Shown here piece by piece: positions 20,462 through 60,801 of a stretch of 64,000 nucleotides of DNA. Source of the DNA: Naegleria gruberi (Eukaryota). The notes under the pieces were generated by a model. That model made no database searches. It had not been told where the DNA came from and saw only the letters and a list, made by a program, of their open reading frames with translations. The position numbers and the translations under genes are program-made. Position 1 is the stretch's first letter. Each line of letters begins with the position of its first letter. The DNA is taken from the NCBI GenBank assembly GCA_000004985.1, contig GG738845.1; one strand, 5' to 3'.

Positions 20462-22018
20462 ATGGATTCACCTGGACGAGCAAATCACAGCACATCAAAC
20501 AATTCAAAAACAACATCATTAAATAACAACAACGGAGGGCCTTTACGAATAAGCGTTCAAAACCAAGGATCTTCAAACAATTTTTCTTCTCCTGTTAGTC
20601 CATCATCGGGAAACCTTGGATCACCTTATAAAATGCAGAAAAAGTTTGATTCATATGAAACAGCCCTTAACAGCAAATTGAGACTGGAAACTCCACCAAC
20701 CGAAGAGGATTTAAAGTCAGAAATACCCAGTCAAAAAAAGTATGATCAAATATTACAAAATGTTGAGAATGTTGTAAAACAACAAACATCGTTTATGAAT
20801 TCGGATTCAATCACTGGCAATGTTGCTACATCAAGGCCAGAAACTAAGTTGAAACAAAAAAAGAAAAAGAAAGGAAGTGCTCTGTATAATCCAACAGGGG
20901 CTAGTGAAACCAGTTATATGGAATTGTATAATAATTTAAGAGAAAAATATCAGACGCTACTTGCTGAAAATCTAAGACAACAAGAAGTATTCAAATTGAG
21001 GCACGATACATTTTTGAAACGAGAGCAACAATCTAAGGAAATAGAAACTGAGCTACATGAGAAAATGAGAGAATCCATGATTGCTAGGGGAGCTGCTGGG
21101 GATCATATGCAACATTTAGTATTAATGAAAGAAAAAATTCAAGAAGGAGTAACTCTAATGAGATTGGAAACTCAAAGACTTTTGGATGGAAAAGAAAAAG
21201 AATTTGGAAGAAAAATAGAGGAAATGATTAGGAGATTCGACAGAGATCTTGCTGATGAAAAGAAAATTAATACGTCAGGAGAACGAGAGTGGAGGGAAAA
21301 GAGTAAATCTTTGAAGAAAGAGTTGGATAATTCAACTGCTCAAGTCATTAAGGTTGACCAACTCAATCATGAGCTGATGAAGGAAAACCAAAAATTAAAA
21401 ATTCAATTTGCAGCCCAAGAAGATGACAGAAACTATCTAGCAAAACATATTGCAAAAACTAAAAGAGACAATGAAAAGCTAAAAGAGGAAACCAAAAGAC
21501 TTCAGGAAGAACTTCAAAGATGCAATAATATAATTAAGGAAATGCAACTTTTAAAACCAATGAGCCCTACAACTCCATCTTTTGCAAATAACAAATCTTC
21601 AATAACCAGTCCTAGAGATAGGGACTCTTCTTCAATCTACACAGTGAATCACTTATCAATTTTGGAACCAGAAGAAAAGGAAAGAAGATTTTTAGAGGCA
21701 AATAACAAACTAAAGAAACTTCTTGATCAAGAAAGGAGAAACATTAGGCAAATTAGAGCTCAAAATATAAGAATATTAGAGGAAAGAACAGAATTAGAAA
21801 TATTCTTAAAGAGTTGTATTGAAGATGTAAAAGAAGAAGTGCGAAGAATGAAGGGAGAAAAGGGAGATAATGAATTCCATAAAAGGGATAGAATGAGAGT
21901 GATAGAGTTACTTCTTTCAAAAGAAAGAGTCATCAAAATACTGTATGAAAGAATGTTTGACAAACCACCAGAAAAAGATTTTGATGTAGAAAGTCAACAC
22001 CAACAGTTTACAGAATAA
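20462..22018 (+). CDS. coiled-coil protein (hypothetical)
   Basis: 518-aa ATG ORF. Long heptad-like E/K/L/Q-rich stretches and a KKKKKG basic patch. The stop is embedded in AATAAA. Confidence 0.55.
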   Translation: MDSPGRANHSTSNNSKTTSLNNNNGGPLRISVQNQGSSNNFSSPVSPSSGNLGSPYKMQKKFDSYETALNSKLRLETPPTEEDLKSEIPSQKKYDQILQNVENVVKQQTSFMNSDSITGNVATSRPETKLKQKKKKKGSALYNPTGASETSYMELYNNLREKYQTLLAENLRQQEVFKLRHDTFLKREQQSKEIETELHEKMRESMIARGAAGDHMQHLVLMKEKIQEGVTLMRLETQRLLDGKEKEFGRKIEEMIRRFDRDLADEKKINTSGEREWREKSKSLKKELDNSTAQVIKVDQLNHELMKENQKLKIQFAAQEDDRNYLAKHIAKTKRDNEKLKEETKRLQEELQRCNNIIKEMQLLKPMSPTTPSFANNKSSITSPRDRDSSSIYTVNHLSILEPEEKERRFLEANNKLKKLLDQERRNIRQIRAQNIRILEERTELEIFLKSCIEDVKEEVRRMKGEKGDNEFHKRDRMRVIELLLSKERVIKILYERMFDKPPEKDFDVESQHQQFTE

Positions 22019-29300: not shown

Positions 29301-29769
29301 ATTTCAAATCGAGAGTGGAATCCTCATCTACATTCTCTGATTGATCATAAAAGCTATCCTCTCCTTCATTGTCCTCATTATTTCTTCGAATATCTCGATT
29401 ATCATATTCATCTCCAGCATCTGAATGTTCATCCATCTCAACCTTTGATTCATCATTTTCATTTACTTCGTGTTCCTGAACGTGGTGATGTAGATTTTCT
29501 TCATCATTTTCCTCACCGTCATTTTCTGGATCTTCCTCTTCATGAACCTCCTGATTATCCTCCTCTTCTCCATATTGTTGATTTTCTTCATCATCAGCCT
29601 CTTCTCCTTCTTGGTTCTCATCTTCCTCAATCAAAGGAGTTCCATGATCCCTATTTTCATTCTCATTTTCCTCTGTCATTTCCTCCTCTGCGGAATTGTC
29701 CACCATCAAAGTTTCTTCTGGATCTTCGTTGGCTGAAATATGTGTATCCTCATCTGTTGTTGGTTCCAT
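26391..29769 (-). CDS. WD40-repeat protein with Glu/Asp/Asn-rich N-terminus and EF-hand-like C-terminal region (CFAP251/WDR66-like architecture), 4 exons
   Basis: join(complement 29158..29769, 28501..29090, 27799..28443, 26391..27753), 1070 codons. Donors are GTAAGT, with introns of 67, 57 and 45 nt. Frames are continuous across ORF-track pieces 29059..29823, 28497..29084, 27798..28226 and 26391..27731. Several WD-like repeats are present, and the C-terminus has a paired helix-loop-helix pattern. Confidence 0.7.
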
Positions 29770-33125: not shown

Positions 33126-34280
33126 TTATTCATGCAATTCCAAAATGAAATCATTCAATTTGTTTGCAACAAATTTCCACTCAACATCCAAAACCATATT
33201 GTGACCTACTTGAACGCTGTTTGGAATTAAAACAGAGTGAACTTGATGATGTGGTTTAGAGTCCAAAATTAATTTCCAAAATTCCACAATCTTTTCAAAC
33301 TGACCAACTGAAAAGAAGGTATCCTTTTCAATACCTAACACCATAATATTAAATCTTCTCTTGCTAAAATATTCCATGATTGGTGTAGGATTCAATGAAC
33401 AAGTAAGGGCATCAAGATAATAAATGATACTCTCTGGGTAGAGTGGAACTTGTTTGGAGATTTCTTCAATTTGAGACTCACTTGTCTTTTCATGGTAGAG
33501 GAAATGTTTGGTATGTTTGGTTGTTTTGGTGACAAGTGGATCCAATCTTTGAGTGAGAACCATATCCAAGGCAATACTAGGGTCATATAAAAGAGAAGGT
33601 AAAATATTGTCAAATCTGTGGATTGGAGGAATGGATCCTAACAAGATTACAGATCTAATGATAACACTCTGATCATTTTTCGAGGCGAGAGATTCCAAAT
33701 ATTTCTGACAAACCAAGCCACCTAAAGAGTGACAAACAAGAATTACCTTTTCACCCTTGTAATTGTTGTCAATAATTGTTTTCAAATCTTTTACATAATC
33801 ATGCAATCTCAGCCACTTAATATATTCGGAATGACTCGATTGACCATGTCCAGTCATGGAAAAGGCACCAAGTGATTTAATATTTGGATTTTCAATCTTT
33901 TGAAAATATGGGAAATAATTAACAAGCCATTCTTCCTTTCCTCCAAAGGCCCCATGCACAAATAATAAATTATAACCCTGATTACTGGGTAATTTTTCAT
34001 TATAAACTCTAGTAAAATCCAACTTTCTAGTTTCCTCTTTAATAAAAGAAAATTCTTCATTAGTAATAAATAATCCCAACAAGACGCTAACTAATACAAT
34101 CACATAGCTTAAATTTGTACAACAAGAAATGAGAAAGGATGGCCCTTCTCGTTGAGCTCTTTGAATTAATTTCCTATCGGAATGTTCTTGGTGGTGGTGA
34201 TGATGATCGTGGTGATGTTCCTCCGAAGAGTGAAGATCTTCAATTTGATTTCTCTTTCTGAGTGTTGGTGTATTTTGCAT
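33126..34280 (-). CDS. alpha/beta-hydrolase (lipase/esterase-type GHSLGG nucleophile elbow) with N-terminal His-rich tract and TM segment
   Basis: CHSLGGLV matches the GxSxG serine-hydrolase motif. The N-terminal EEHHHDHHHHHQEH is followed by a hydrophobic segment. Start taken at the internal ATG (MQNTPTLRKR). Confidence 0.6.
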   Translation of the reverse strand: MQNTPTLRKRNQIEDLHSSEEHHHDHHHHHQEHSDRKLIQRAQREGPSFLISCCTNLSYVIVLVSVLLGLFITNEEFSFIKEETRKLDFTRVYNEKLPSNQGYNLLFVHGAFGGKEEWLVNYFPYFQKIENPNIKSLGAFSMTGHGQSSHSEYIKWLRLHDYVKDLKTIIDNNYKGEKVILVCHSLGGLVCQKYLESLASKNDQSVIIRSVILLGSIPPIHRFDNILPSLLYDPSIALDMVLTQRLDPLVTKTTKHTKHFLYHEKTSESQIEEISKQVPLYPESIIYYLDALTCSLNPTPIMEYFSKRRFNIMVLGIEKDTFFSVGQFEKIVEFWKLILDSKPHHQVHSVLIPNSVQVGHNMVLDVEWKFVANKLNDFILELHE

Positions 34281-34459
34281 TTTTTTAAATTTTGAATAAT
34301 AACCTAATGTAAACAATAGTAAACAATAGATGAAATTTGTAGTTTTTAATATCATAAAAATTTCTATTAATTTTCTTATTGAATTATACAATATATCAAT
34401 GCTCCAAGAAACCTTTGAGTTTTCTGTTCACCCAACATGAAAAAATTCAATCAAAAAAA

Positions 34460-35641
34460 ATGTTCAACAATAATTCATTGCGTAAAGTTTTAAATGTTAC
34501 CCTTGCGACTCATCACACTTCCGTTTCAACATTTGGCTTGTTTTCATCACGATGGAATTGCCTCTCGAGACGATGCTATGCGACAGTAGTTACTAAAACT
34601 ACTACAGCCAACACCAACACTACAATAACAAACAATCACTCTCAACAACAAATTGATATTCAGCAAACACCAATTTTAAATAGTTCCACGAAAATCCAAA
34701 TATCCAAGAGCGGGAAGATTTATACTGAAACGAATTTAACACCTGGATTACAAAAATTCTTGGAAAAATCCAGAATCATTAACAGAGAGTTAGCAAAAAG
34801 TGGAACACCTGAAAATAAGGACACCAAATTGGATAACGATACAGATGCTCATTTACAAACATTATTACTGAGAAGTGTCACTCATGCATCTTATGGAACT
34901 GGTAAAGTTAGGAGTCAAGAACGATTGAGTTTTATTGGATCATTTGTATTGAATATGGTTTTAACAGAAATAATTTCTCAAAAGTATATGGTTAATCAAA
35001 ATAATTGTGGACGCGAGAATTTTAACACTGTCAATCTTATCAAATCCATCTACAATAATAGATCATTTTTGGCCTTTATTGTGGCTAATCAATATTGGAA
35101 TTTGTCAAATCAATACAACAATAAGACAGTTGAAAATGATACTAAATTGAACAAATCATTGAATCAAATTTGTACCAAATATAATATTACAGACTTGAAT
35201 GATAATATAATTGAAGTAGATAACGAGCATTATACATTACGTGTTGTTGGATGGAATGAAATGTCATTCAAATCACAAGTTGAAATTTTATCCAATACAG
35301 TCAATGCTATCATTGGTACTATTTACAGTAAATGTGGATTACAAGTTGCTAGAGAATTTATTGAAGAAGAGATTATAAAGGAAAGACCAGCAGTAGTTTA
35401 CAAAAAGTTATTATTGCTCGACGAACCACAAATGGTACTGAATGATTTAGCCTCCTCTCAATATTATGCATCCATCAAATTCATTGAAGAGTATGTAAAG
35501 GCCAATAATTGTCACAAATGCACCATCTATGTCAAACAAAATGTAATTGGTGATGCCAACGCCAAAGACAATTTCAAAGCTAAAAAATTGGCTTGTTTTG
35601 ATGGTTTGATGAGATTCCAATCCATGATACCATCCTATTAG
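34460..35641 (+). CDS. protein with degenerate RNase III-like domain, possibly mitochondrial ribosomal protein mL44-like
   Basis: QERLSFIGSFVLNMVLTEII resembles the RNase III signature (ERLEFLGDS) with catalytic residues altered, as in mL44/Mrpl3. The N-terminus is basic and S/T-rich, presequence-like. Start taken at the first true ATG (MFNNNS). Confidence 0.4.
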   Translation: MFNNNSLRKVLNVTLATHHTSVSTFGLFSSRWNCLSRRCYATVVTKTTTANTNTTITNNHSQQQIDIQQTPILNSSTKIQISKSGKIYTETNLTPGLQKFLEKSRIINRELAKSGTPENKDTKLDNDTDAHLQTLLLRSVTHASYGTGKVRSQERLSFIGSFVLNMVLTEIISQKYMVNQNNCGRENFNTVNLIKSIYNNRSFLAFIVANQYWNLSNQYNNKTVENDTKLNKSLNQICTKYNITDLNDNIIEVDNEHYTLRVVGWNEMSFKSQVEILSNTVNAIIGTIYSKCGLQVAREFIEEEIIKERPAVVYKKLLLLDEPQMVLNDLASSQYYASIKFIEEYVKANNCHKCTIYVKQNVIGDANAKDNFKAKKLACFDGLMRFQSMIPSY

Positions 35642-35762
35642 AAATAAATTATTTATACCTTACTAATAATACTCATCATCGTTTAGCGTGCTACTACCAC
35701 CTTATTGGCCCACCGTTTTTTTTAACTCTATTAGTAAAAAAAATAGTTTGAGAATAATAACC

Positions 35763-36651
35763 ATGGGGGAAGAGCTACCACCACGTAAAATATTCTTCCT
35801 CTCTCAATTTGCATTTGGGTCAGCTTGTTGTTTTGTGATTTGTTTTATAGTATGGTTGGGAGTGTTTTTTGGAAGCAATTTCTATGGTAAGTTAATATGG
35901 TATGATTGGAATTTTAGTATGAAATTTTGTACTGTAGAAATTAGAGTTAAGGAAACTTTCCTTCCGACAACTTGTAAGGTTAGTAGTGTCTATTAAGACC
36001 CTCTTAAAATCCTGAATCAACAAAAAGGTAATTAAAAGAGAAGTTCTCTCATACAAACACTGTGAAACTAGTTGCTTTGGTTGTAACGAGTGTGAATATT
36101 CTAAATTGCCTTCTTGCAATAATGCTGATTCTTATTTAACCTATAACTCATCTGCCTATTGTTGTGGAGGTTACATATGTTGCAGTGAGTGTGATTGTGA
36201 TGAAAAAGATCGCCACTGTCGATGCTGTCACAGTATCAGTCATCAAAAATGTAGAATGGATTGTTTTGAATATTGGAGGGGAGAAATTACAATGGAATAT
36301 TTGACCGTGGAAAACAAGACAATTGGTTCACTAATGGTTAAGGATTGCAGAAACGAATTTTCTTGCATTGACATGTATTTTGATTTGTGGAAAGTGAATC
36401 AGACTGGACAATGTTTCTATAATCCTATGAGACCATCAGAGTTTGCCACAAAGAATACCTATAACATGGATGCTTTTAGTGCCATGTATGTTTTTGCAAG
36501 CTTTATAATATTATACTGTTTGCTTTGTGTTCCAAGTTGTACTATCTTTGCATATCTTAAAAGAAATAAGAGTAACGGAGATCAATTAACGAATATTCAT
36601 CCTCCAATAACTATTGTTTCAACAGAACCAAATGTGGATTACAATGTCTGA
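35763..36651 (+). CDS. cysteine-rich membrane protein (hypothetical), 3 exons
   Basis: Proposed join(35763..35886,35938..35978,36028..36651), with canonical GTAAGT/GTTAGT donors, AG acceptors and a continuous frame. Dense Cys clusters (CCGGYICCSECDCDEKDRHCRCCH) and two hydrophobic segments. No family recognised. Confidence 0.4.
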
Positions 36652-37649
36652 TAATGTGTGTCTTTTGTTGCCTGTTTGAATTGGCCGTAATTAAATTTTA
36701 AGGTAATAGAAACTAGAGTATGATGAGTAATACCTTTATGAATATATATTGTATTTCCTTTAGAATCTAGTAATTTGGTTACCTTGGTAAGTCAAGTGTT
36801 GTATATTTTCACTTTATTAGTTGTAAATGACTTTGAGAATAAATATATATATATAAACAGTTACAATTTAATTTGATTGCAATAATCTAAATGAAAAGCT
36901 ATTAAAAGTACTTTCTTTTTATTAGAGATCCCATGTTTCCCATTTAATATCGAGTAGTAAAAATATGTAAATTAAAAAATGGAAAAAATGTTGAGTTTTG
37001 GTATTTTTTTAAAAAATGTTTTTTTCAAAAAAATTTCGATAAAAACTAGAAATTTATTAGTATTTCAATGAAAAATACGAATTTTCATACATGCGTTGGT
37101 GGGATATGTTTGTCATATTAGATATTTAATAAAAATAAAATAAAAATTTTCGCATGCATTTATATATATATATAAATACATCCGAAAAAATTTTTGTTGA
37201 AAGTTGGTTTATTAGATGGTTAAATTGGTTTATCTGAAAAATCATTTAAAAGTGATTTAGATATAAAGATAATGAAATTAATTGAAAATTAAGAAGCTAA
37301 AATAAATTTTCAAAAATTTATCGATTTGAAATTTAGAAAAGCTTAACAAAGTAATATAAAAAACCATTAATTTTTAAAAATCTTCTAAAGTTGGTATTAT
37401 CATTATGAAGATTATTGATTGGAAGTAATAATCTTTATGGTAAATCCAAAGAAAATGAATTCAAAGAAAGAACAAACTTTGTAAAAATATTACAAAAACA
37501 CTGTTATTAGAAGTAGTAAAAGTAGAGTGATAGTTGTTTATTAAAACAAAGAAAAACTCTTACAACAAGAAATAGACAACTAGATTCATGGAGGTTGATG
37601 GAGTGATAAGTTTAAAAATAAATGGTCCAACTAATATCTAACATCAATT

Positions 37650-37652
<3 letters not shown>

Positions 37653-37680
<28 letters not shown>

Positions 37681-37681
37681 T
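37653..37681. repeat. (AT)n dinucleotide microsatellite, about 14 units, inside a 2.8 kb gene-free AT-rich island
   Basis: Perfect ATATAT... run. Shorter (TA)5-7 runs at about 36845 and 37163. Confidence 0.9.
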
Positions 37682-39430
37682 TCAAATATCATCATTTGAC
37701 TACTTTCAGCTTTTATTGTTAAAAACATAAATAAATTTCCGGTGTTTATTACAACTAGGTAAAACTGAAACGGTGCTACTAAGTTGATTAAGGAACCAGG
37801 TCAACAAATGATCCTGTCTTGTTCCTGATAGTGATATCCACTTGATATCAACTACCAAGCAATACTACAAAAGCTATTGCTTTAGATAATTGGCTATCCA
37901 AATGAAAATGTCATTTGATCAAATTATCTGTCACCAAATTGGATATGATCAAATGAAATCCAATAAAATAATAAATTATTAAAAAATTATTGACTTACTA
38001 GATCTGAAATTTCTATTGAAATTATTTTGTGTTAGGGTGGGGTGGTGGGAATTCTTTAGCCACTTGTGGTGTGAAAGTGGCAAGTAAATCTTTTAATGAT
38101 GATGCCATTCTTGTAAATTTTTAAAATTGTTTTTGAAATTTGCTAGTTGACACTTATTTTATTGTTGTTAATAAACCTACATAAGCTTAACGCTTACTGC
38201 GAAAAAATAAAACACAAAAAATCAATTCAACTCAAAAACAAATTTTGTGAAAACTTGAATTTAGACTAAACTACCTAAACGGTACTACTAAGTTTACCAT
38301 TGTTACACTGAGATATTATGATCTTTTTTGGTTTTTTCATTTGTTTGGTTAGTCAATTTGAAGTTTTGAAAAAAGTTGAAGCTGTAGTAGTTTTTGGTTC
38401 ATCAAAAGCAGTTTTTGGTAATTCAAATCAAGAAACAAGGTAATTTAGAATTTTCTAATAAAATTAAAGAACCAATTGTTTATTAGAAAATAATATACAT
38501 CATCTTCCTTCAAAACATAATTCCTTAAACATTTCGAGTCTTTCAAACCTAGTTATTTAAAGCTGAAACAATCGGTGTTTTATTTTTGAGACCTGCTTTT
38601 ATAAATATAAATCTTGTACGATTGAATGAGTTTATTGATGTTAAGAAAAGAACATAGGAAGAATATATTTATCACAAGATTCACAAAGAAAATCAAGGAG
38701 GGATTATTGAAGTTCATTTTAAAAACACAAACATGCAATTTTATTGTACCTTAAAAAGAATTTTATAAGCATCCTTAAGACGTTATTTGATTCAACCAAT
38801 TGGTTGAGTAGGTATTTTAAGAGAATATAATGAATAATTTGGAGCATTTTGGAATGAATTTTTTTTTATAAATAATTTGATAAATCATATTCTCAATTTA
38901 AATGTAGAGAAATAGAAAATTATTATGAAGGCTATTTACAACTCATTTTACAGGAAATACTTATATTTAAGAAACGAACTAAGTGTTCGAATACTTGATT
39001 GCCCTAATTAATCATCTGTTCATGTTGTTTTTGAATTGTTGATTTTATCATTAAATAAATCACCAAATCAACAATCAACCAACATGAAATAACTTTGTAG
39101 TTGTTATATTTAAAAGATGTTAGGGTTTTGTTATTTATTGAATACAGAATAATAAAAGAATCAATTTGGTTTTCCTGATGAATTAAAAAATGTGTTTGAT
39201 GTGTCGGCATTTTTGTAATAACTGTCTAATAGAATATAATTTGACAACAAATTCAGGCTAGAAATTACATTTCAATTTATGAAATAAACTTTATTTCATA
39301 TCATGGTTATTTAAAATACAATATCTCAAAAATGGATCTTGTGTATTAAATAAGATAATTAGTTCGTTTCTGTTTTAGGTTTGAAAAAAATTTCAAATAA
39401 AATACCCTTCATTAAATCCAAGTTTAAAAA

Positions 39431-41795
39431 ATGTCTTTCATTGTAAGAGGGGTTAAAGATGGACATTTTATTGCATTACATTTTGATCGGAATAATAATG
39501 AATTGATAGAGGAATGGTTTGAGTGGAATGGTAATGATTTAGCATTAAAGAAATCCTCCATATTGCAATTATTTACATCACATCCTCCTATCAATCAAGT
39601 AGAATTGTTTGAAATATTTAATACAACTATCGGAATGTAGGTAGAATTTAACGAATTATGTGATTTTAATATAATTCATAGATCACAAATATACATGGTA
39701 TCACTATTAAATAATTATCAAACCATGATGATTCATGTAAAATTGTGTGGACAAATGAATAATAATTGGTTAAAGTGTTTTGAAATGGATACAAGTGATC
39801 AATTTAATGAAAAATCTAAATTGGAAATATATGGATTGGATGGGCCTAATTTTATTATGAAACAGGATTCACACTTGTTTTATATTAATTCTAATAATGA
39901 GGTATTATTTACGAATTTAAATGAAGAAGAATCGAGTGACGTGAAATTTAAAATTATTTATTGTGATTACATTGGTGGTGATAGAGATTTTGTTAATATT
40001 GTATTGGCATCGAATAAGAATCAGTACAGTTTATTTAATGTACCAGTTTGTTGTTCTCGTAATGAGTGTTCATTCATTGAGTGGTGTGACAAGATTAATG
40101 ATCAATTTAAACTACCTCAAGCAACTTTTTCAACACATAGTTCCTGTTTAGCATTTCACAACGATTCTACATTTATTGGAAGTGTGGAGAAACAGATATT
40201 AATATTCAAAGATAATTTAATTAATAAGTGTATAGAAATCAAGTCTATTCCCGTTAAAATTAATGTATTGACAATTAATAGCCATCCAGTAAAGGAAGAA
40301 TATCTGATTGTACACACATCCGATAGACGAGTGAGTATAGTTTCACTTCTCGACTACTCTATTCAACAAGGTATGTGTTTCAAAATAGACTATTAATCTT
40401 TAATCTACTCTAGAAATCCAAGGTGTTTTAGAATATCATATTGGGGATTTTATGTATTCAGGTTCTCAACAATTAATTTGTTTTCATACTGAATTGAGTT
40501 TTGGGAAAGTATCATACACACTTATACCTAATATGAACGAATCCATTACTGATGGAAACATTACCATTAAAGAGAAGAATATTAAGGGAAAGCACTTGTA
40601 TTCCGTTCTGAGATCTCTTGCATCACGAATTGAACAATGTCACCATGATTTAACCAAAATTGAGAGCAATACCTTTTTCAAATCTCAATTAATTCAACAT
40701 CAACAAGAGGTCACTCTGGATATTTTGAAAGGTATCAACTCTAGCTCTACCGAAATCGAGGCTTTGGATGAAAATGAAGAGTTGGAAATTGGCACTAGGA
40801 TTTTATTCAAAAATAATTCAATTAATTTTGGAAATACTTTATTCTATGATAAAAGAATAGAAGGAAAAAATAACAAGGATACATCAGATATCACCATTCA
40901 GTATGCTTCTCAATCCTTTAATATTAATCAGTGGACAATAAGAACGATGTTCAATAAGTGTAATCCCAACTTGGATTTATTAATAGTACCAATTTCAAAC
41001 ACTGTTAATATGGAGAGTGAAATATTCAAATCTGAAAACTCTGAAACATCTGATCTCGTCCTGAAAATGAAAACTCCCCAACACTATTCAGATCCAAATC
41101 TCTCTGTAAAGTGTATGGTTATCAAGAGAGATACCACCAACCCAAATCAAACTCAATTCGAATATCTTGGAAGTATTCAACCTTCAAGCACGGATAAACT
41201 ATTTGGAATCAAGCCATCCCCCATAGAAATTGAACAACCTGATATCCAACATGTACAATTCATTTTGATGAGGAACAACAAATCACATTCTGGCACTTCA
41301 ATAGAGCAAATACTAAAAGAGTGCCTCTCCAATGAGCTAGGTATGAATATTTCAGAAAATCCTTCAAAAACTGACTCGCCAACAATACCGACTACCAATT
41401 TTGAATTTAACACACTCTCTAAGGGTTACAGTTCATCCCTCTACTATCGAGTCCAATATTATAGTGAACAAGTTGTTGAAAATGAAAGTTCATTAATATG
41501 TAATCTATATGCAGATACCAATGAAACTGTCATGTTAGTGATTGAGAAAATTCAACAAACCCTAAAATCTGAAAATGTTATACTCCTTCTCTCACCTCTA
41601 ACAATGATGAACGATCGAAGGGAATTAATATCAAGTTTATCAAGGGAAATCAAGCACGTCATTTTCAAATTACACGATCATGTTAAAAAGATGACACTAA
41701 TGAACCCACAAGAGAGGGAAATTCAAAACGACATTCTTATCTATCTTCAATTACAAATGGAAAGTGATAAGGTAATTTCAAAATTATTGGAATAA
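39431..41795 (+). CDS. hypothetical protein, 3 exons, about 758 aa
   Basis: join(39431..39636,39682..40370,40414..41795). Donors are GTAGGT and GTATGT, with introns of 45 and 43 nt. Frame continuity links ORF-track pieces 39431, 39695 and 40452. No domain recognised. Confidence 0.6.
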
Positions 41796-41823
41796 AAAAG
41801 ATCTTTCAAAATTAAAAAAATAA

Positions 41824-44800
41824 ATGAAAGCCATCTCCAATGCCAAAACACGATTCAGTCGGCAAACACAAGATGGCCACAAATCGGATCAATTATTAAT
41901 TAATGATCAAATATTGAAAAATTCAGTATATGAATATGAGCGGAATGTATTATTATTATTCATGTTGCAACAACATTCGGAATTGTTGAATCAGAGTGAT
42001 AGGGAATATATTAAGAATATTAAAAGTGATGATATTGATCATGTTAATGAATTGAGTAATATTACAGATATTCATTACGTTATGAATCATTTAACTAGAA
42101 AACTTTCTATTGATTTGACAAAATTTGATTTGAATAAGAAGAAGGAATTAATTCAAGACACACAAATGATTCATCATCCTCCATCAACAACACAACAAAA
42201 CTTGGGAAAATCTCCAGGTATTAAAAAACCATTACCACTCACACCACAAAATGCTTTCGCAATTAATTCACAACAACAACAATTTGATTCTACTATTAAT
42301 TCATTGGACAATAATCCAGTTAGTATTATCAATACTTCTTCTATTCCTTCACCAACTAAAATTAATACATTTACCGAACCAATACTATCAACACCAACAA
42401 GTATTACAACTTCTGTTAATGAAAGTGGCACATTGTACCCAAGTATTACTACTCCTGTTAATGAAGTTTCCTCTCCAATTGCCGAGAAGAGAATTAAACC
42501 TCTTCCAAAGCCAGCCCTATTAGATACTAAAGAAATCATGTACACAACCATTATGGGAAGTACAAAGGAAAATACTGATCAATTTTGGAAACTTGATAGT
42601 TATAATGAGCTCAAATCGCTCAGTTATGAAATTTTATTATTAAATTCTAATGGTCTGGTAGATTTCAGTGGAAATAGAGAAAATTTGGATGCAATTTTGA
42701 ATACTGTTAGAAAATATTGTGGAGTTTCAAAGAATGAACATTTTGAGATGGTTAAACGAGTTACCAATTCTGCTTCATTTACCAATTCTCTAAATACAAT
42801 AGATAGTGTCGAATATTATCAAACTATTTCAAAAATTAAATTACAACCAAGTACAGATTCCAAAACTTCTCTCCAATTATGGAAACTCATTGGATTAGTT
42901 TTGAAGAATGAAAATTTAGATATCATCAAACAATATTCACAAGTTTTCTATAACAACTTGTTACTATTTTTGAAACAACAAACAAATATTAATTTCAAAC
43001 TGAATAACATTACATTTACCGACATGCAAAAACTGGAAGAATTTTTGAATGAGGAGTTTACAAATTTTGATGACAGCGATTCTATTAATGACATCATTCA
43101 AATTTACACAAAATTGAATTCTGACATTGTAACTCCGCTAATCAAACAAATACCTTCTACAGGTGATTTAATTCCCTACTTGTATCCTTTGAATATCAAG
43201 CTCTACTCTTACTTGTCAGATACTAGAGTGTTGAGCCTTTTAAAGCTGGCCAAGAGTGGTGAAATTGAGATACCATACGATATTGATGATGTTATGAATG
43301 ATGAAATTGATTTGAGCGACATCTTTATTGATCTTATTGAAGATGAAGAAGTAACCAAGAGTTTAAAGTTGCACCGTAAAGTATTGAACATTTCTGAAAC
43401 GATGGACATTATGTGCTATATTGATTCTGTGTTCAGAATGGAACAAAATTGTCAAACAGATACAGATCTACTTTTACTGTGTGATCGTTACCTTTTATGC
43501 CTTTTACAATACTATATCAAACATACCAAATTTTCAAATTATTCAAAAGAGGAACTCTCATTGTACAATAATGTATTTAATAATATGAGACACATTTTGG
43601 GTAATTCACTCATGGATTTCACATCTAGTTATACTATCGATCATGAAGTATTTTCCTCCCATCTCAAACTCTTTAAATATGTCTATTACATTATGCAAAA
43701 GAATGAAAATAATTTGACCAACTTGAGTACAGTATTTGACTATATCACCAAGCTTTCAATGAGAAAGCAATATGAAAGAATCAAATCTAGTAATATGCAT
43801 TCTGCTTCAGAACAAGCAGGAAGTAATAACATAATTGATGACAGTGTTGTATTGGATGAACTGGTCAAGTTTGGTAAAGATATCCTTGAAGAATTATCCT
43901 ACCAACAATCAACCTTCTTTACTTACTTGGGCTCTAAAGATTATTATCCAAATGCCTTTATCGATTCCCTGTACTTGAATTTGTCAAATTATTTGAAGGA
44001 TGTTCAGACAGTATTTTCAAAGTATGTTAAAACAGAAGTTTCTGGAGGAGTTTTTGAAATATTCGAAATATTTGAATCATTTTTGAAAATATTCAATGAA
44101 TACTTGTTCAATGATGAAGAGTTAGAGTTGACTGATTTGGAAAATATAAGAAAAGAATATCCATTCAAAATGTCAAAACTGTTCGAACCAAACATTTCAA
44201 TACTCAGAGTACCAATGAATAATTGGATGAATAACATTCAAAATCAATACTTTAAATATCTGGAAAATTCTGTAAAATTGGAAAAGTTTGAACCTATCAG
44301 TCAGGAGGTTATGTATTCCTCTTCACATGTTGACCTTTTCACATTCGTCAGACAGGGTTTACCAACTCTGTACAAGTTGTGCATGCCGAATGCTATGGAA
44401 TATTTCAGACATTTTAATCAATGCCTGTCTGGACTCATGCAAAGGTATTGTGTCCATATGGTTCATAACTTGCCAAAAGTTGAAGATTTTATTCCAAAAA
44501 AGATACAACCATTTTCTTCAATTACAGTAAACACTTCAGGTAATGGTGTTCTCAAAAAGCTAATGTCATCAGGAGAAACTGCTGACAACACCAATGGATT
44601 TATAACACCAAGATTTGAATCAAATGGTATTAGTTACGAAGAATTGTTTGTGAGATTGGCCAATTTGGTCAACACTAGAAGACAATATATCAAGGTTGTG
44701 AAGGAACTCATTGAAAAATCAGATAATTACCGCTTACTCTTTGTTGGTAAGACGAATACCAATAGTACATCTCTTCCAGCAACGTTACTCCCTATTGATT

Positions 44801-45459
44801 TTTATTCCAACTTGGAAGGTACATCAGAACTTTTGAAAGATTTCATCAAACAACTAACTGAAATAATAGGATGTAGAAATATCTATCACGAACTTTATAA
44901 TAATTTATTTGGAGAACTTTATTTGCCAACTGTTAAGGATATGACTCTTTCCAAAATGATTGAGGACTACTTTGAACCATGCTTGGAGTCTCTAGTAGAA
45001 ATGACAGATGATCCAAACTGTGTAGAGTGGATTATTATGTCCATGTTTAGACATTTAATCAAATCCTTACAGTTTATCATTATTGATGGATACATTTCTC
45101 AAAATGAGTTCCATTTGAATAAGAGGCAATACAGTGCTTCCGATACAAAATATTTCCTTTCTGATTTGAGTTTGATTGAGAAATTCTTTTATAGTGATGG
45201 AGAAGGTATTTCGGATTGGAATTTTATTATTCAGACAACTGGTTTCTTGAAGAATGTGATTGCGAATGTAATGGACAAAGCTTCAGAATATTTAATCAAT
45301 GGATCAAACCAAAATCCAGCTTTTGAAACTCTCTCAGCAAGTATCACACCAAAAACTCCATTTTCTAAAAATGTTGTCTACAAGGTTTTATTTAATAGAA
45401 CTGATCTGCATGCTAAAAAGTTCATTAAGAATCACAAATTCAGGTATGGCTATGAATAA
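41824..45459 (+). CDS. hypothetical large protein (1211 aa)
   Basis: Single ATG ORF starting 28 bp after the previous gene's stop. An Asn/Ser/Thr-rich linker is followed by a long alpha-helical-looking region. TAA stop with AATAAA. No motif recognised. Confidence 0.6.
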   Translation: MKAISNAKTRFSRQTQDGHKSDQLLINDQILKNSVYEYERNVLLLFMLQQHSELLNQSDREYIKNIKSDDIDHVNELSNITDIHYVMNHLTRKLSIDLTKFDLNKKKELIQDTQMIHHPPSTTQQNLGKSPGIKKPLPLTPQNAFAINSQQQQFDSTINSLDNNPVSIINTSSIPSPTKINTFTEPILSTPTSITTSVNESGTLYPSITTPVNEVSSPIAEKRIKPLPKPALLDTKEIMYTTIMGSTKENTDQFWKLDSYNELKSLSYEILLLNSNGLVDFSGNRENLDAILNTVRKYCGVSKNEHFEMVKRVTNSASFTNSLNTIDSVEYYQTISKIKLQPSTDSKTSLQLWKLIGLVLKNENLDIIKQYSQVFYNNLLLFLKQQTNINFKLNNITFTDMQKLEEFLNEEFTNFDDSDSINDIIQIYTKLNSDIVTPLIKQIPSTGDLIPYLYPLNIKLYSYLSDTRVLSLLKLAKSGEIEIPYDIDDVMNDEIDLSDIFIDLIEDEEVTKSLKLHRKVLNISETMDIMCYIDSVFRMEQNCQTDTDLLLLCDRYLLCLLQYYIKHTKFSNYSKEELSLYNNVFNNMRHILGNSLMDFTSSYTIDHEVFSSHLKLFKYVYYIMQKNENNLTNLSTVFDYITKLSMRKQYERIKSSNMHSASEQAGSNNIIDDSVVLDELVKFGKDILEELSYQQSTFFTYLGSKDYYPNAFIDSLYLNLSNYLKDVQTVFSKYVKTEVSGGVFEIFEIFESFLKIFNEYLFNDEELELTDLENIRKEYPFKMSKLFEPNISILRVPMNNWMNNIQNQYFKYLENSVKLEKFEPISQEVMYSSSHVDLFTFVRQGLPTLYKLCMPNAMEYFRHFNQCLSGLMQRYCVHMVHNLPKVEDFIPKKIQPFSSITVNTSGNGVLKKLMSSGETADNTNGFITPRFESNGISYEELFVRLANLVNTRRQYIKVVKELIEKSDNYRLLFVGKTNTNSTSLPATLLPIDFYSNLEGTSELLKDFIKQLTEIIGCRNIYHELYNNLFGELYLPTVKDMTLSKMIEDYFEPCLESLVEMTDDPNCVEWIIMSMFRHLIKSLQFIIIDGYISQNEFHLNKRQYSASDTKYFLSDLSLIEKFFYSDGEGISDWNFIIQTTGFLKNVIANVMDKASEYLINGSNQNPAFETLSASITPKTPFSKNVVYKVLFNRTDLHAKKFIKNHKFRYGYE

Positions 45460-60728: not shown

Positions 60729-60801
60729 CGCCCACCGTGGGGGTCGAACCCACGACCACAAGGTTAAGAGCCTTGCGCTCTACCGACTGAGCTAGACGGG
60801 C
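60729..60801 (-). tRNA. tRNA-Lys (anticodon CUU)
   Basis: The reverse complement reads GCCCGTCTAGCTCAGTCGGTAGAGCGCAAGGCTCTTAACCTTGTGGTCGTGGGTTCGACCCCCACGGTGGGCG. This is a canonical cloverleaf with D-loop AGTCGGTAGA, anticodon loop CTCTTAA and T-loop GGTTCGA, and it is near-identical to eukaryotic cytosolic tRNA-Lys(CUU). Confidence 0.9.

Follow-up and report, generated by a model that had tools for sequence, protein, structure and literature searches.

The window, the whole 64-kb stretch of DNA analysed here, belongs to the nuclear genome of Naegleria gruberi, and one of its ORFs shares 99% identity with a protein of that species. ENA run ERR1078381 (PRJEB11402) contains reads of a strain with 98.2% identity at this locus. 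Its largest ORF-free gap is a non-coding island of 2779 nt (36652-39430), which extends from the stop codon of an ORF ending at 36651 to an ATG at 39431. The next largest gaps of the window measure 1204 and 1102 nt and the median gap 122 nt, making the island 2.3 times as long as the next gap and 23 times as long as the median. A gene-free stretch of 2.8 kb had been reported at this place by a first-pass annotation of the sequence, and the measurement bears this out.

To the left of the island lies a plus-strand gene for an orphan Cys-rich membrane protein (35688-36651), with ORF blocks at 35688-35996 and 36106-36651. It has no Pfam match, and no relative was found in a 5.8-billion-protein database or in IMG/VR. 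The IMG/VR comparison asked whether the orphan genes at the flanks came from a virus; no relatives appeared, and the idea was set aside. To the right lies a plus-strand gene of three exons (39431-39638, 39695-40370 and 40413-41795), the orthologue of a 778-aa protein of Naegleria lovaniensis (P0005). Its ATG is supported by orthology, because the N-termini of the two proteins align. Three genes near the island appear to be unannotated in the public N. gruberi gene set, in which one model is a chimera.

The N. lovaniensis orthologue of the right-hand gene has different neighbours and an upstream spacer of just 145 nt, which makes the island lineage-specific. It is particular to the N. gruberi lineage rather than ancient at this locus. 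Gene order differs between N. gruberi and N. fowleri/N. lovaniensis around the PATROL1-like gene, the RNase III gene and the downstream gene; since this applies to every anchor, the synteny-based comparison failed. A comparable ORF-poor gap of 1.5 kb with 24.6% GC lies nearby at the N. fowleri locus. Six-frame and blastn comparisons of the island with three Naegleria loci (L001, L002 and L013, from N. fowleri/N. lovaniensis) gave chance-level matches only, and a fourth locus (L016) was compared with the window as a whole, at a strict threshold.

Coding content and base composition

No coding-looking ORF of at least 60 aa had been noted in the island. This holds. The longest ORF has 68 aa and lies on the minus strand (39004-39210); by our estimate, chance would give about 0.4 stop-free stretches as long as this at the island's composition. 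Stop-free segments of at least 20 aa in all six frames contain no Pfam domain and gave one noise match. A composite six-frame query of the island and its flanks retrieved no near-identical protein from the 5.8-billion-protein database; this search finds only relatives sharing exact 5-residue words with the query, and it therefore rules out annotated N. gruberi proteins and the recent insertion of mitochondrial sequence, but not distant relics. Neither a long ORF nor homology in any frame, the marks of a protein-coding gene or pseudogene, was found in the island. Codon usage, scored as log-odds over every stop-free segment, separates coding from non-coding sequence too poorly for short exons to be recognised, since real genes themselves yield only about 0.1 bit per codon. 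When the island was compared with the rest of the window by blastn and tblastx, the matches were at chance level only and no second copy of island sequence was found.

The island has an A+T content of 75.7% over its 2779 nt, and the lowest GC of the window at the 1-kb scale falls within it. Its description as an AT-rich island stands as far as the measured value of 24.3% GC is concerned, but this value is not special: pooling the true short spacers of the window gives 25.6% GC, and an intron has 21%. The larger gaps of the window have 32% GC, and exons are probably hidden there. Given the match with the short spacers, the island is long non-coding DNA rather than a compositional anomaly. GC skew is positive across the island, with no clean polarity switch at the scale of the window. 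Autocorrelation of the island revealed no tandem periodicity, and there is no satellite or repeat array.

The 18-mer pair and the core between its copies

Two copies of an 18-mer lie on the plus strand of the island, AAACGGTGCTACTAAGTT at 37768-37785 and AAACGGTACTACTAAGTT at 38277-38294. They are identical at 17 of the 18 positions and spaced 509 nt apart, in agreement with the first-pass annotation, which had put them about 510 bp apart. The same annotation had described a similar local context for both copies, which does not survive alignment: over 60-250 nt, the flanks score at the level of shuffled sequence. The edges of the 18-mer are sharp, and the sequences upstream and downstream of the two copies are unrelated by local alignment. 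A degenerate tandem duplication of about 510 nt, to which repeat pairs spaced 507, 509 and 513 nt had pointed, was ruled out by autocorrelation and flank alignment.

No further match to the 18-mer exists in the window with up to 3 mismatches, and the motif and its 10-12 nt sub-cores are absent from all other spacers of the window. It is also absent from the four other Naegleria loci, and the 10 JGI metagenome contigs that matched it in a scan are all unrelated. Of 300 dinucleotide shuffles of the island, 0.7% produced an 18-mer pair with no more than 1 mismatch that is not of low complexity. Besides the pair described here, the real 64 kb has a single one of this kind whose members lie within 2.8 kb of each other. 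At the scale of the whole window, at least one comparable pair would be expected in roughly one case out of four. The 18-mer repeat is therefore unlikely locally and weak at window scale, suggestive rather than compelling.

The 491 nt exactly between the copies (37786-38276) form a core with a hairpin cluster, a G-run and an A-rich 3′ part. Its GC content is 28.9%, against 21.8% on the left and 24.3% on the right, and the step coincides with the 18-mers. The last 77 nt or so are A-rich, with an AT skew of +0.35. At the start of the core, a 9-bp stem (37782-37895) encloses three adjacent hairpins (37791-37826, 37827-37856 and 37857-37882), with fold z values of -3.2 (plus strand) and -2.9 (minus strand); in sliding windows over this cluster, z falls as low as -4.8. 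Three further features of the first-pass annotation were recovered. Its short palindromes around 37905-37960 correspond to a perfect 11-nt inverted repeat (37911-37957) with arms TCATTTGATCA (37911-37921) and TGATCAAATGA (37947-37957) and a 25-nt spacer. Its G-run, GGGTGGGGTGGTGGG on the plus strand (38035-38049), is unique in the window, being the sole 15-nt stretch with at least 11 G (or C) in 64 kb, and its (AT)14 microsatellite lies at 37653-37680, left of the core.

Elsewhere in the island, an AT-rich palindrome with a (TA)n run at its centre (37137-37198) has a fold z of -4.5, and a 70-nt imperfect palindrome or hairpin (39019-39088) has values of -5.0 and -4.4. Fold z falls to -4 or below at three inverted-repeat loci of the island, whereas it never fell below -3.4 in 84 control windows elsewhere. 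At these places folding is as strong on one strand as on the other, indicating DNA palindromes rather than a strand-specific RNA. To the right of the core, T6 runs lie about 30 nt past 18-mer copy 2, and a 21-nt tandem duplication with 81% identity occupies 38386-38427.

Searches for RNA genes

With Rfam 15, which covers snRNA, snoRNA, SL RNA, SRP, RNase P/MRP, telomerase RNA and others, no sequence of the island reached a family's gathering threshold; in the window as a whole, a tRNA at 60729-60801 alone did so. At E<=10, the region 36000-40000 returned two weak snoRNA matches that overlap the coding flank; the rest was miRNA-type hairpin noise of at most 26 bits, where the thresholds are 60-90. 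ARAGORN found no tRNA or tmRNA in the island, nor was the tRNA-like part of a tRNA-derived SINE seen there. Box C/D genes were sought as RUGAUGA followed by CUGA 40-160 nt on, with a terminal stem. No pair at workable spacing was found on either strand of the island, whose single AUGAUGA (38097) has its nearest following CUGA 213 nt off.

The G-run was also considered as a telomerase RNA template, for which about 1.5 telomere repeats would be expected. TTTGGG is a candidate telomere repeat of N. gruberi (PMC3622300). The complement of the G-run carries CCCTAAC and no TTTGGG template, and CCCAAACCC is absent from the window; the candidate was rejected.

The first-pass annotation had proposed tandem small-RNA genes sharing a promoter or internal box; its other suggestions were a replication origin or centromere-like AT island and a long non-coding transcript. 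The tandem RNA genes find no support in Rfam or in the tRNA and C/D-box scans, and the sequences around the 18-mers are unrelated, so that there are no repeated gene units. One or two unannotated, lineage-specific small ncRNA genes at 37.7-38.35 kb, with the 18-mer as a shared promoter element or internal box, are unlikely. The same-strand copies with their sharp edges and near identity, the GC-richer core, the compact three-hairpin junction that begins right past copy 1 and the T6 runs beyond copy 2 are what such genes could leave in the sequence. The arrangement also resembles clustered snoRNA, snRNA and SL-RNA genes of protists, where copies of a short conserved element, all oriented alike, sit a few hundred nt from one another within a spacer. 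Unlike those clusters, however, the island has no repeated gene bodies, box C/D pairs or Rfam match, even at E<=10 where nothing meaningful appeared. In addition, the flanks of the two copies differ on both sides, the folding is that of DNA palindromes, and the 18-mer recurs neither in the other spacers of the window, where its sub-cores are missing too, nor at the four other Naegleria loci.

Discussion

We favour, with middling confidence, the reading that the island is unconstrained non-coding intergenic DNA of the N. gruberi nuclear genome, perhaps with an old insertion. Neither genes for RNA or protein nor mobile elements were detected, and the composition is that of ordinary intergenic DNA, which makes a long spacer the most likely identity. 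Lying between the 3′ end of an orphan gene and the start of a conserved gene, the island must carry the 3′ end signals of the upstream gene and the promoter of the downstream one. Its AT-richness, normal for non-coding DNA in this species, would be the end point of AT-biased mutation, and the (AT)14 run, A/T runs, small tandem duplication and AT palindromes would be the usual by-products of replication slippage. The GC-richer core could then be a later insertion or local rearrangement, and the 18-mers might be duplicated target or junction sequence. Ordinary Naegleria spacers share the range of 24-26% GC, the lack of ORFs, and the microsatellites and A/T runs, the 1.5-kb gap of N. fowleri being one such case. 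For N. gruberi as a whole, 41.0 Mb, 15,708 genes and a mean gene length of 1677 bp have been annotated (PMC8296547). These figures put the average annotated spacer near 0.93 kb, so that 2.8 kb is long but not extreme genome-wide. On the spacer reading, the genome would be expected to have hundreds of spacers at least this long.

Several features are nevertheless unlike an ordinary spacer. The island is a local outlier in length: it measures about 23 times the median gap of the window, and its length is threefold the mean annotated spacer of the genome. It also contains three inverted-repeat clusters that fold more strongly than any of the control windows, the sole strong G-run of the 64 kb, and an 18-nt direct repeat of a kind that few shuffles reproduce. 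Together, the length, the inverted repeats, the G-run and the 18-mer pair may reflect a degree of constraint or a particular history.

One such history, unlikely but compatible with the spacer reading, is that the 491-nt core is a retroposed or other insert and the 18-mers its target-site duplication, as in target-primed reverse transcription of LINE/SINE type. A target-site duplication of such length is typical only of insertion mediated by reverse transcription. LINE/SINE-type insertions likewise have direct repeats of 7-20 nt around a block of different composition with an A-rich 3′ part, and the 18-mers do bound a block of different GC whose final 77 nt or so are A-rich. Unlike those elements, however, the core has no poly(A) tail at its junction, as no homopolymeric A stretch abuts the 3′ repeat, and its ends are unrelated, with no terminal inverted repeats. 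It has no coding capacity and no reverse transcriptase or transposase relic by Pfam in six frames, nor does it have a second copy in the 64-kb window, and at window scale the repeat itself could be due to chance.

The island may also act as a replication origin, which would be compatible with a long spacer, although we consider this improbable. AT-rich intergenic islands mark origins in fission yeast, and the analogy with Schizosaccharomyces pombe extends to the kilobase-scale A+T-rich intergenic tract and the asymmetric A/T runs. At 2.8 kb and 76% A+T, the island is well above the 0.5 kb of A+T-rich sequence looked for in such origins, and its long A/T runs, palindromes, G4-capable run and positive GC skew point the same way. 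Its A+T content is, however, no higher than that of the other spacers of the same genome, unlike the situation in S. pombe, and there is no clear switch of skew polarity at the island at window scale. The S. pombe mechanism uses the AT-hook of Orc4, which is not known in Naegleria, and to our knowledge nothing has been established about origin specification in this genus, which we count against the analogy.

Very unlikely is a small regional centromere, AT-rich and palindrome-bearing, of an N. gruberi chromosome. Gene-free, AT-rich centromeres of 2-4 kb occur in Plasmodium, Cyanidioschyzon, diatoms and Clavispora (Candida) lusitaniae. Like those of P. falciparum, C. merolae, diatoms and C. lusitaniae, the island is a gene-free GC trough of 2-4 kb in a compact genome; it is the lowest-GC and longest gene-free stretch of the 64 kb, is rich in inverted repeats, and occupies a position that is not conserved between species. 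Naegleria has CENP-A kinetochores, and its centromere DNA had not yet been mapped in a 2026 kinetochore preprint. Unlike those centromeres, however, the trough is no deeper than ordinary spacers and has no satellite or repeat array, and similar, shorter AT-rich gaps occur at other Naegleria loci. The prior is also low, since about one centromere per 1-3 Mb, by our estimate, gives a 2-6% chance per 64-kb window.

That the island conceals a protein-coding gene split into very small exons is highly improbable, as is a micro-ORF, for instance MASSLKDLLATFTPQVAKEFPPPHPNTK, of 28 aa on the minus strand (38021-38107). In favour of coding, both 18-mers read LSSTV on the minus strand with their single difference synonymous, a reading F-[ED]-[LE]-P-K-T-[AT] is obtained from the 21-nt tandem repeat, and the micro-ORF has the best per-codon codon score among comparable segments. 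Such scores are, however, within noise for short segments, the peptide similarity stops at the limits of the 18-mer, Pfam and the protein database gave no relatives, and inspection gave no splice-compatible exon chain.

If the island is only a long spacer, as we favour, its value is practical, as a marker of a region in which the public N. gruberi gene set is of poor quality. A discrete transcript tied to the 18-mer would make it a new lineage-specific RNA gene, and the finding would matter more if replication starts in the island. It would also matter more if CENP-A binds there, as the centromere DNA of Naegleria is unknown and its kinetochore is now under study; a true centromere at this locus would give Heterolobosea its first identified centromere DNA.

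A long gene-free island of ordinary composition

When all ORFs of at least 100 aa were mapped across the window, the largest uncovered gap was the island at 36652-39430 (2779 nt), bounded on the left by an ORF whose stop codon ends at 36651 and on the right by the ATG at 39431; the next two gaps measure 1204 and 1102 nt and the median is 122 nt. The gene-free island described in the first-pass annotation is real and accurately described there, and all motifs listed there were recovered, including a pair of 18-mers, (AT)14 (37653-37680), the G-run GGGTGGGGTGGTGGG (38035-38049) and a perfect 11-nt inverted repeat (arms 37911-37921 and 37947-37957). The low GC content of the island (24.3%, against approximately 33% for this gene-dense window with short introns) also holds, but its AT-richness is not special, since short unambiguous spacers between adjacent genes have a pooled GC of 25.6% and one confirmed intron has 21%. 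The larger gaps of the window, at 32% GC, probably harbour unrecognised exons. The composition of the island is ordinary for non-coding DNA of the N. gruberi genome, and only its length is unusual. The published annotation (41.0 Mb, 15,708 genes, mean gene length 1677 bp; PMC8296547) implies that annotated spacers average about 0.93 kb, and a spacer of 2.8 kb is long, not extreme, genome-wide. A shorter analogue is found in N. fowleri, where a 1.5 kb ORF-poor gap of 24.6% GC without notable repeats (locus L001, 18655-20196) lies between a PTH2 gene and the orthologue of the alpha/beta-hydrolase gene at 33126-34391 of the window.

The left flanking gene encodes an orphan Cys-rich membrane protein. 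The right flanking gene (39431-41795) has three exons (introns 39639-39694 and 40371-40412) and is collinear with P0005, an N. lovaniensis protein of 778 aa, N-terminus included; judged from sequence, the right edge of the island is a true gene start. In N. lovaniensis this orthologue has a 145-nt upstream spacer and other neighbours, so the association of island and gene is not ancient. The next ORF (41824-45459) matches an NCBI entry, 'predicted protein [Naegleria gruberi]', at 99% identity, which identifies the window as N. gruberi nuclear DNA. The protein carries a PATROL1/MHD1-type domain and has homologues in N. fowleri (46% identical) and N. lovaniensis (38%). Gene order differs between N. 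gruberi and these two species at every anchor tested, which precludes a comparison of non-coding DNA by synteny. In all three species the hydrolase and PATROL1-like genes are separated by no more than a few kb, with varying relative orientation and intervening genes (L001 and L002); inversions and insertions have therefore occurred locally around the island.

Our leading explanation for the island, held at about even confidence, is an unconstrained spacer between genes that is specific to this lineage. Such a spacer would bear the 3' signals of the upstream gene and the promoter of the downstream gene, and AT-biased mutation together with slippage would generate its composition and simple repeats.

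The direct repeat and palindromes within the island

The two 18-mers (37768-37785 and 38277-38294) are identical at 17 of 18 positions and lie on one strand, 509 nt apart. Among 300 dinucleotide shuffles of the island, 0.7% yielded a pair of 18-mers that was not of low complexity and differed at no more than one position, and the real 64 kb holds one further pair at this level within 2.8 kb, giving a local p of approximately 0.01-0.02; across the whole scanned window, at least one such pair is expected by chance in about one case in four. The other pair, TGTAGATTTTCTTCATCA (29489-29506) and TGTTGATTTTCTTCATCA (29576-29593), with one mismatch and 87 nt apart, sits within an ORF. The copies in the island are sharp-edged: their 60-250 nt flanks align no better than shuffles, and the similar local context previously ascribed to them was not supported. 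No further occurrence of the 18-mer or its 10-12 nt sub-cores was found in the window or in four N. fowleri and N. lovaniensis loci, and ten exact matches in JGI metagenome contigs all lie in unrelated sequences (36-54% GC). A weak third copy, AAATGGTCCAACTAATAT (37620-37637; 13/18, same strand), lies 148 nt 5' of the first, with about 0.2 such matches expected by chance in the island. No periodicity of about 510 nt was detected in the island, three repeat pairs being spaced 507-513 nt by coincidence.

The core between the copies (37786-38276, 491 nt) has 28.9% GC, against 21.8% to its left and 24.3% to its right, with peaks of 36-38%. Three hairpins lie side by side in it under a closing stem of 9 bp (37782-37895); it also holds the 11-nt palindrome and the G-run, which is the sole 15-nt stretch with at least 11 G or C in the 64 kb. 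Sliding 120-nt folds gave three island loci with z <= -4 (37092-37251, 37732-37971 and 38972-39131), compared with a minimum of -3.4 in 84 control windows elsewhere. Their signal is equal on both strands, indicating DNA inverted repeats rather than a strand-specific RNA fold. Rfam at gathering thresholds gave no match in the island, and at E <= 10 only miRNA-type matches on two palindromes and two weak snoRNA matches on the coding flank; neither a tRNA nor a C-box/D-box pair was found in the island. The sole Rfam/ARAGORN match in the window is a tRNA-Lys(CTT) at 60729-60801 (minus strand). With these searches empty and the 18-mer flanks at shuffle level, the proposed tandem small-RNA genes find no support, and a new lineage-specific RNA gene with the 18-mer as its box is unlikely. 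The G-run was rejected as a telomerase template, as it does not match TTTGGG, the candidate N. gruberi telomere repeat (PMC3622300).

Within the spacer reading, the core may be an old insertion, the 18-mers resembling a target-site duplication. This step is weak because the junction lacks a poly(A) tail and there is no terminal inverted repeat, no coding relic and no second copy in the window. A retroposed insertion as such, compatible with the spacer reading, is about as improbable as the RNA gene. An AT-island-type replication origin, likewise compatible with a spacer, is less probable still. A small regional centromere is very improbable. Naegleria has CENP-A kinetochores, and its centromere DNA had not been mapped as of a 2026 kinetochore preprint.

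A cryptic coding gene or micro-ORF is equally improbable. The longest ORF within the island (68 aa) is near chance level at its composition. A composite of every six-frame stop-free island segment of at least 20 aa contained no Pfam domain and had no near-identical protein among 5.8 billion, which excludes any gene annotated in N. gruberi as well as a recent insertion of mitochondrial or transposon origin whose reading frames are intact. The island showed no similarity to the remainder of the window or, in six-frame comparison, to three other Naegleria loci. An exact 19/19-nt match, ATGTTGTTTTTGAATTGTT (39022-39040 against 20498-20516, minus strand; blastn E = 0.004), joins an arm of the 70-nt palindrome in the island with the 5' portion of a coding ORF and is probably a low-complexity coincidence. 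On the minus strand, a 28-aa ORF, MASSLKDLLATFTPQVAKEFPPPHPNTK (38021-38107), runs across the G-run, and a 21-nt tandem duplication (38386-38427) reads F-[ED]-[LE]-P-K-T-[AT]; no homology was found for either.

Gene models around the island and a related strain

The public N. gruberi model P0001 (1567 aa) looks, from its alignment, like a chimera: its first 432 aa (40533-41828) are part of the three-exon gene, and the remainder is the PATROL1/MHD1-like gene (41932-45456). In the protein database, no 100%-identical NCBI N. gruberi entry was found for the RNase III gene (34379-35641), the Cys-rich membrane-protein gene (35688-36651) or the first two exons of the right flanking gene (39431-40396). 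These appear to be unannotated, which would widen the annotated gap at the island to about 6 kb. The sole 100% match to the RNase III protein comes from an ENA metagenome. The 2.4 kb ENA metagenome contig L017 (ERZ929261, run ERR1078381, PRJEB11402) has 98.2% DNA identity to window 33329-35725, with 21 mismatches and 9 gaps, and its RNase III protein is identical. By this resemblance the environmental contig represents a closely related strain or haplotype of N. gruberi.

In summary, the island is best read as a long non-coding spacer that has a few odd local features. There is a small chance that it is something important, and the data set containing L017 could provide an allele of it.
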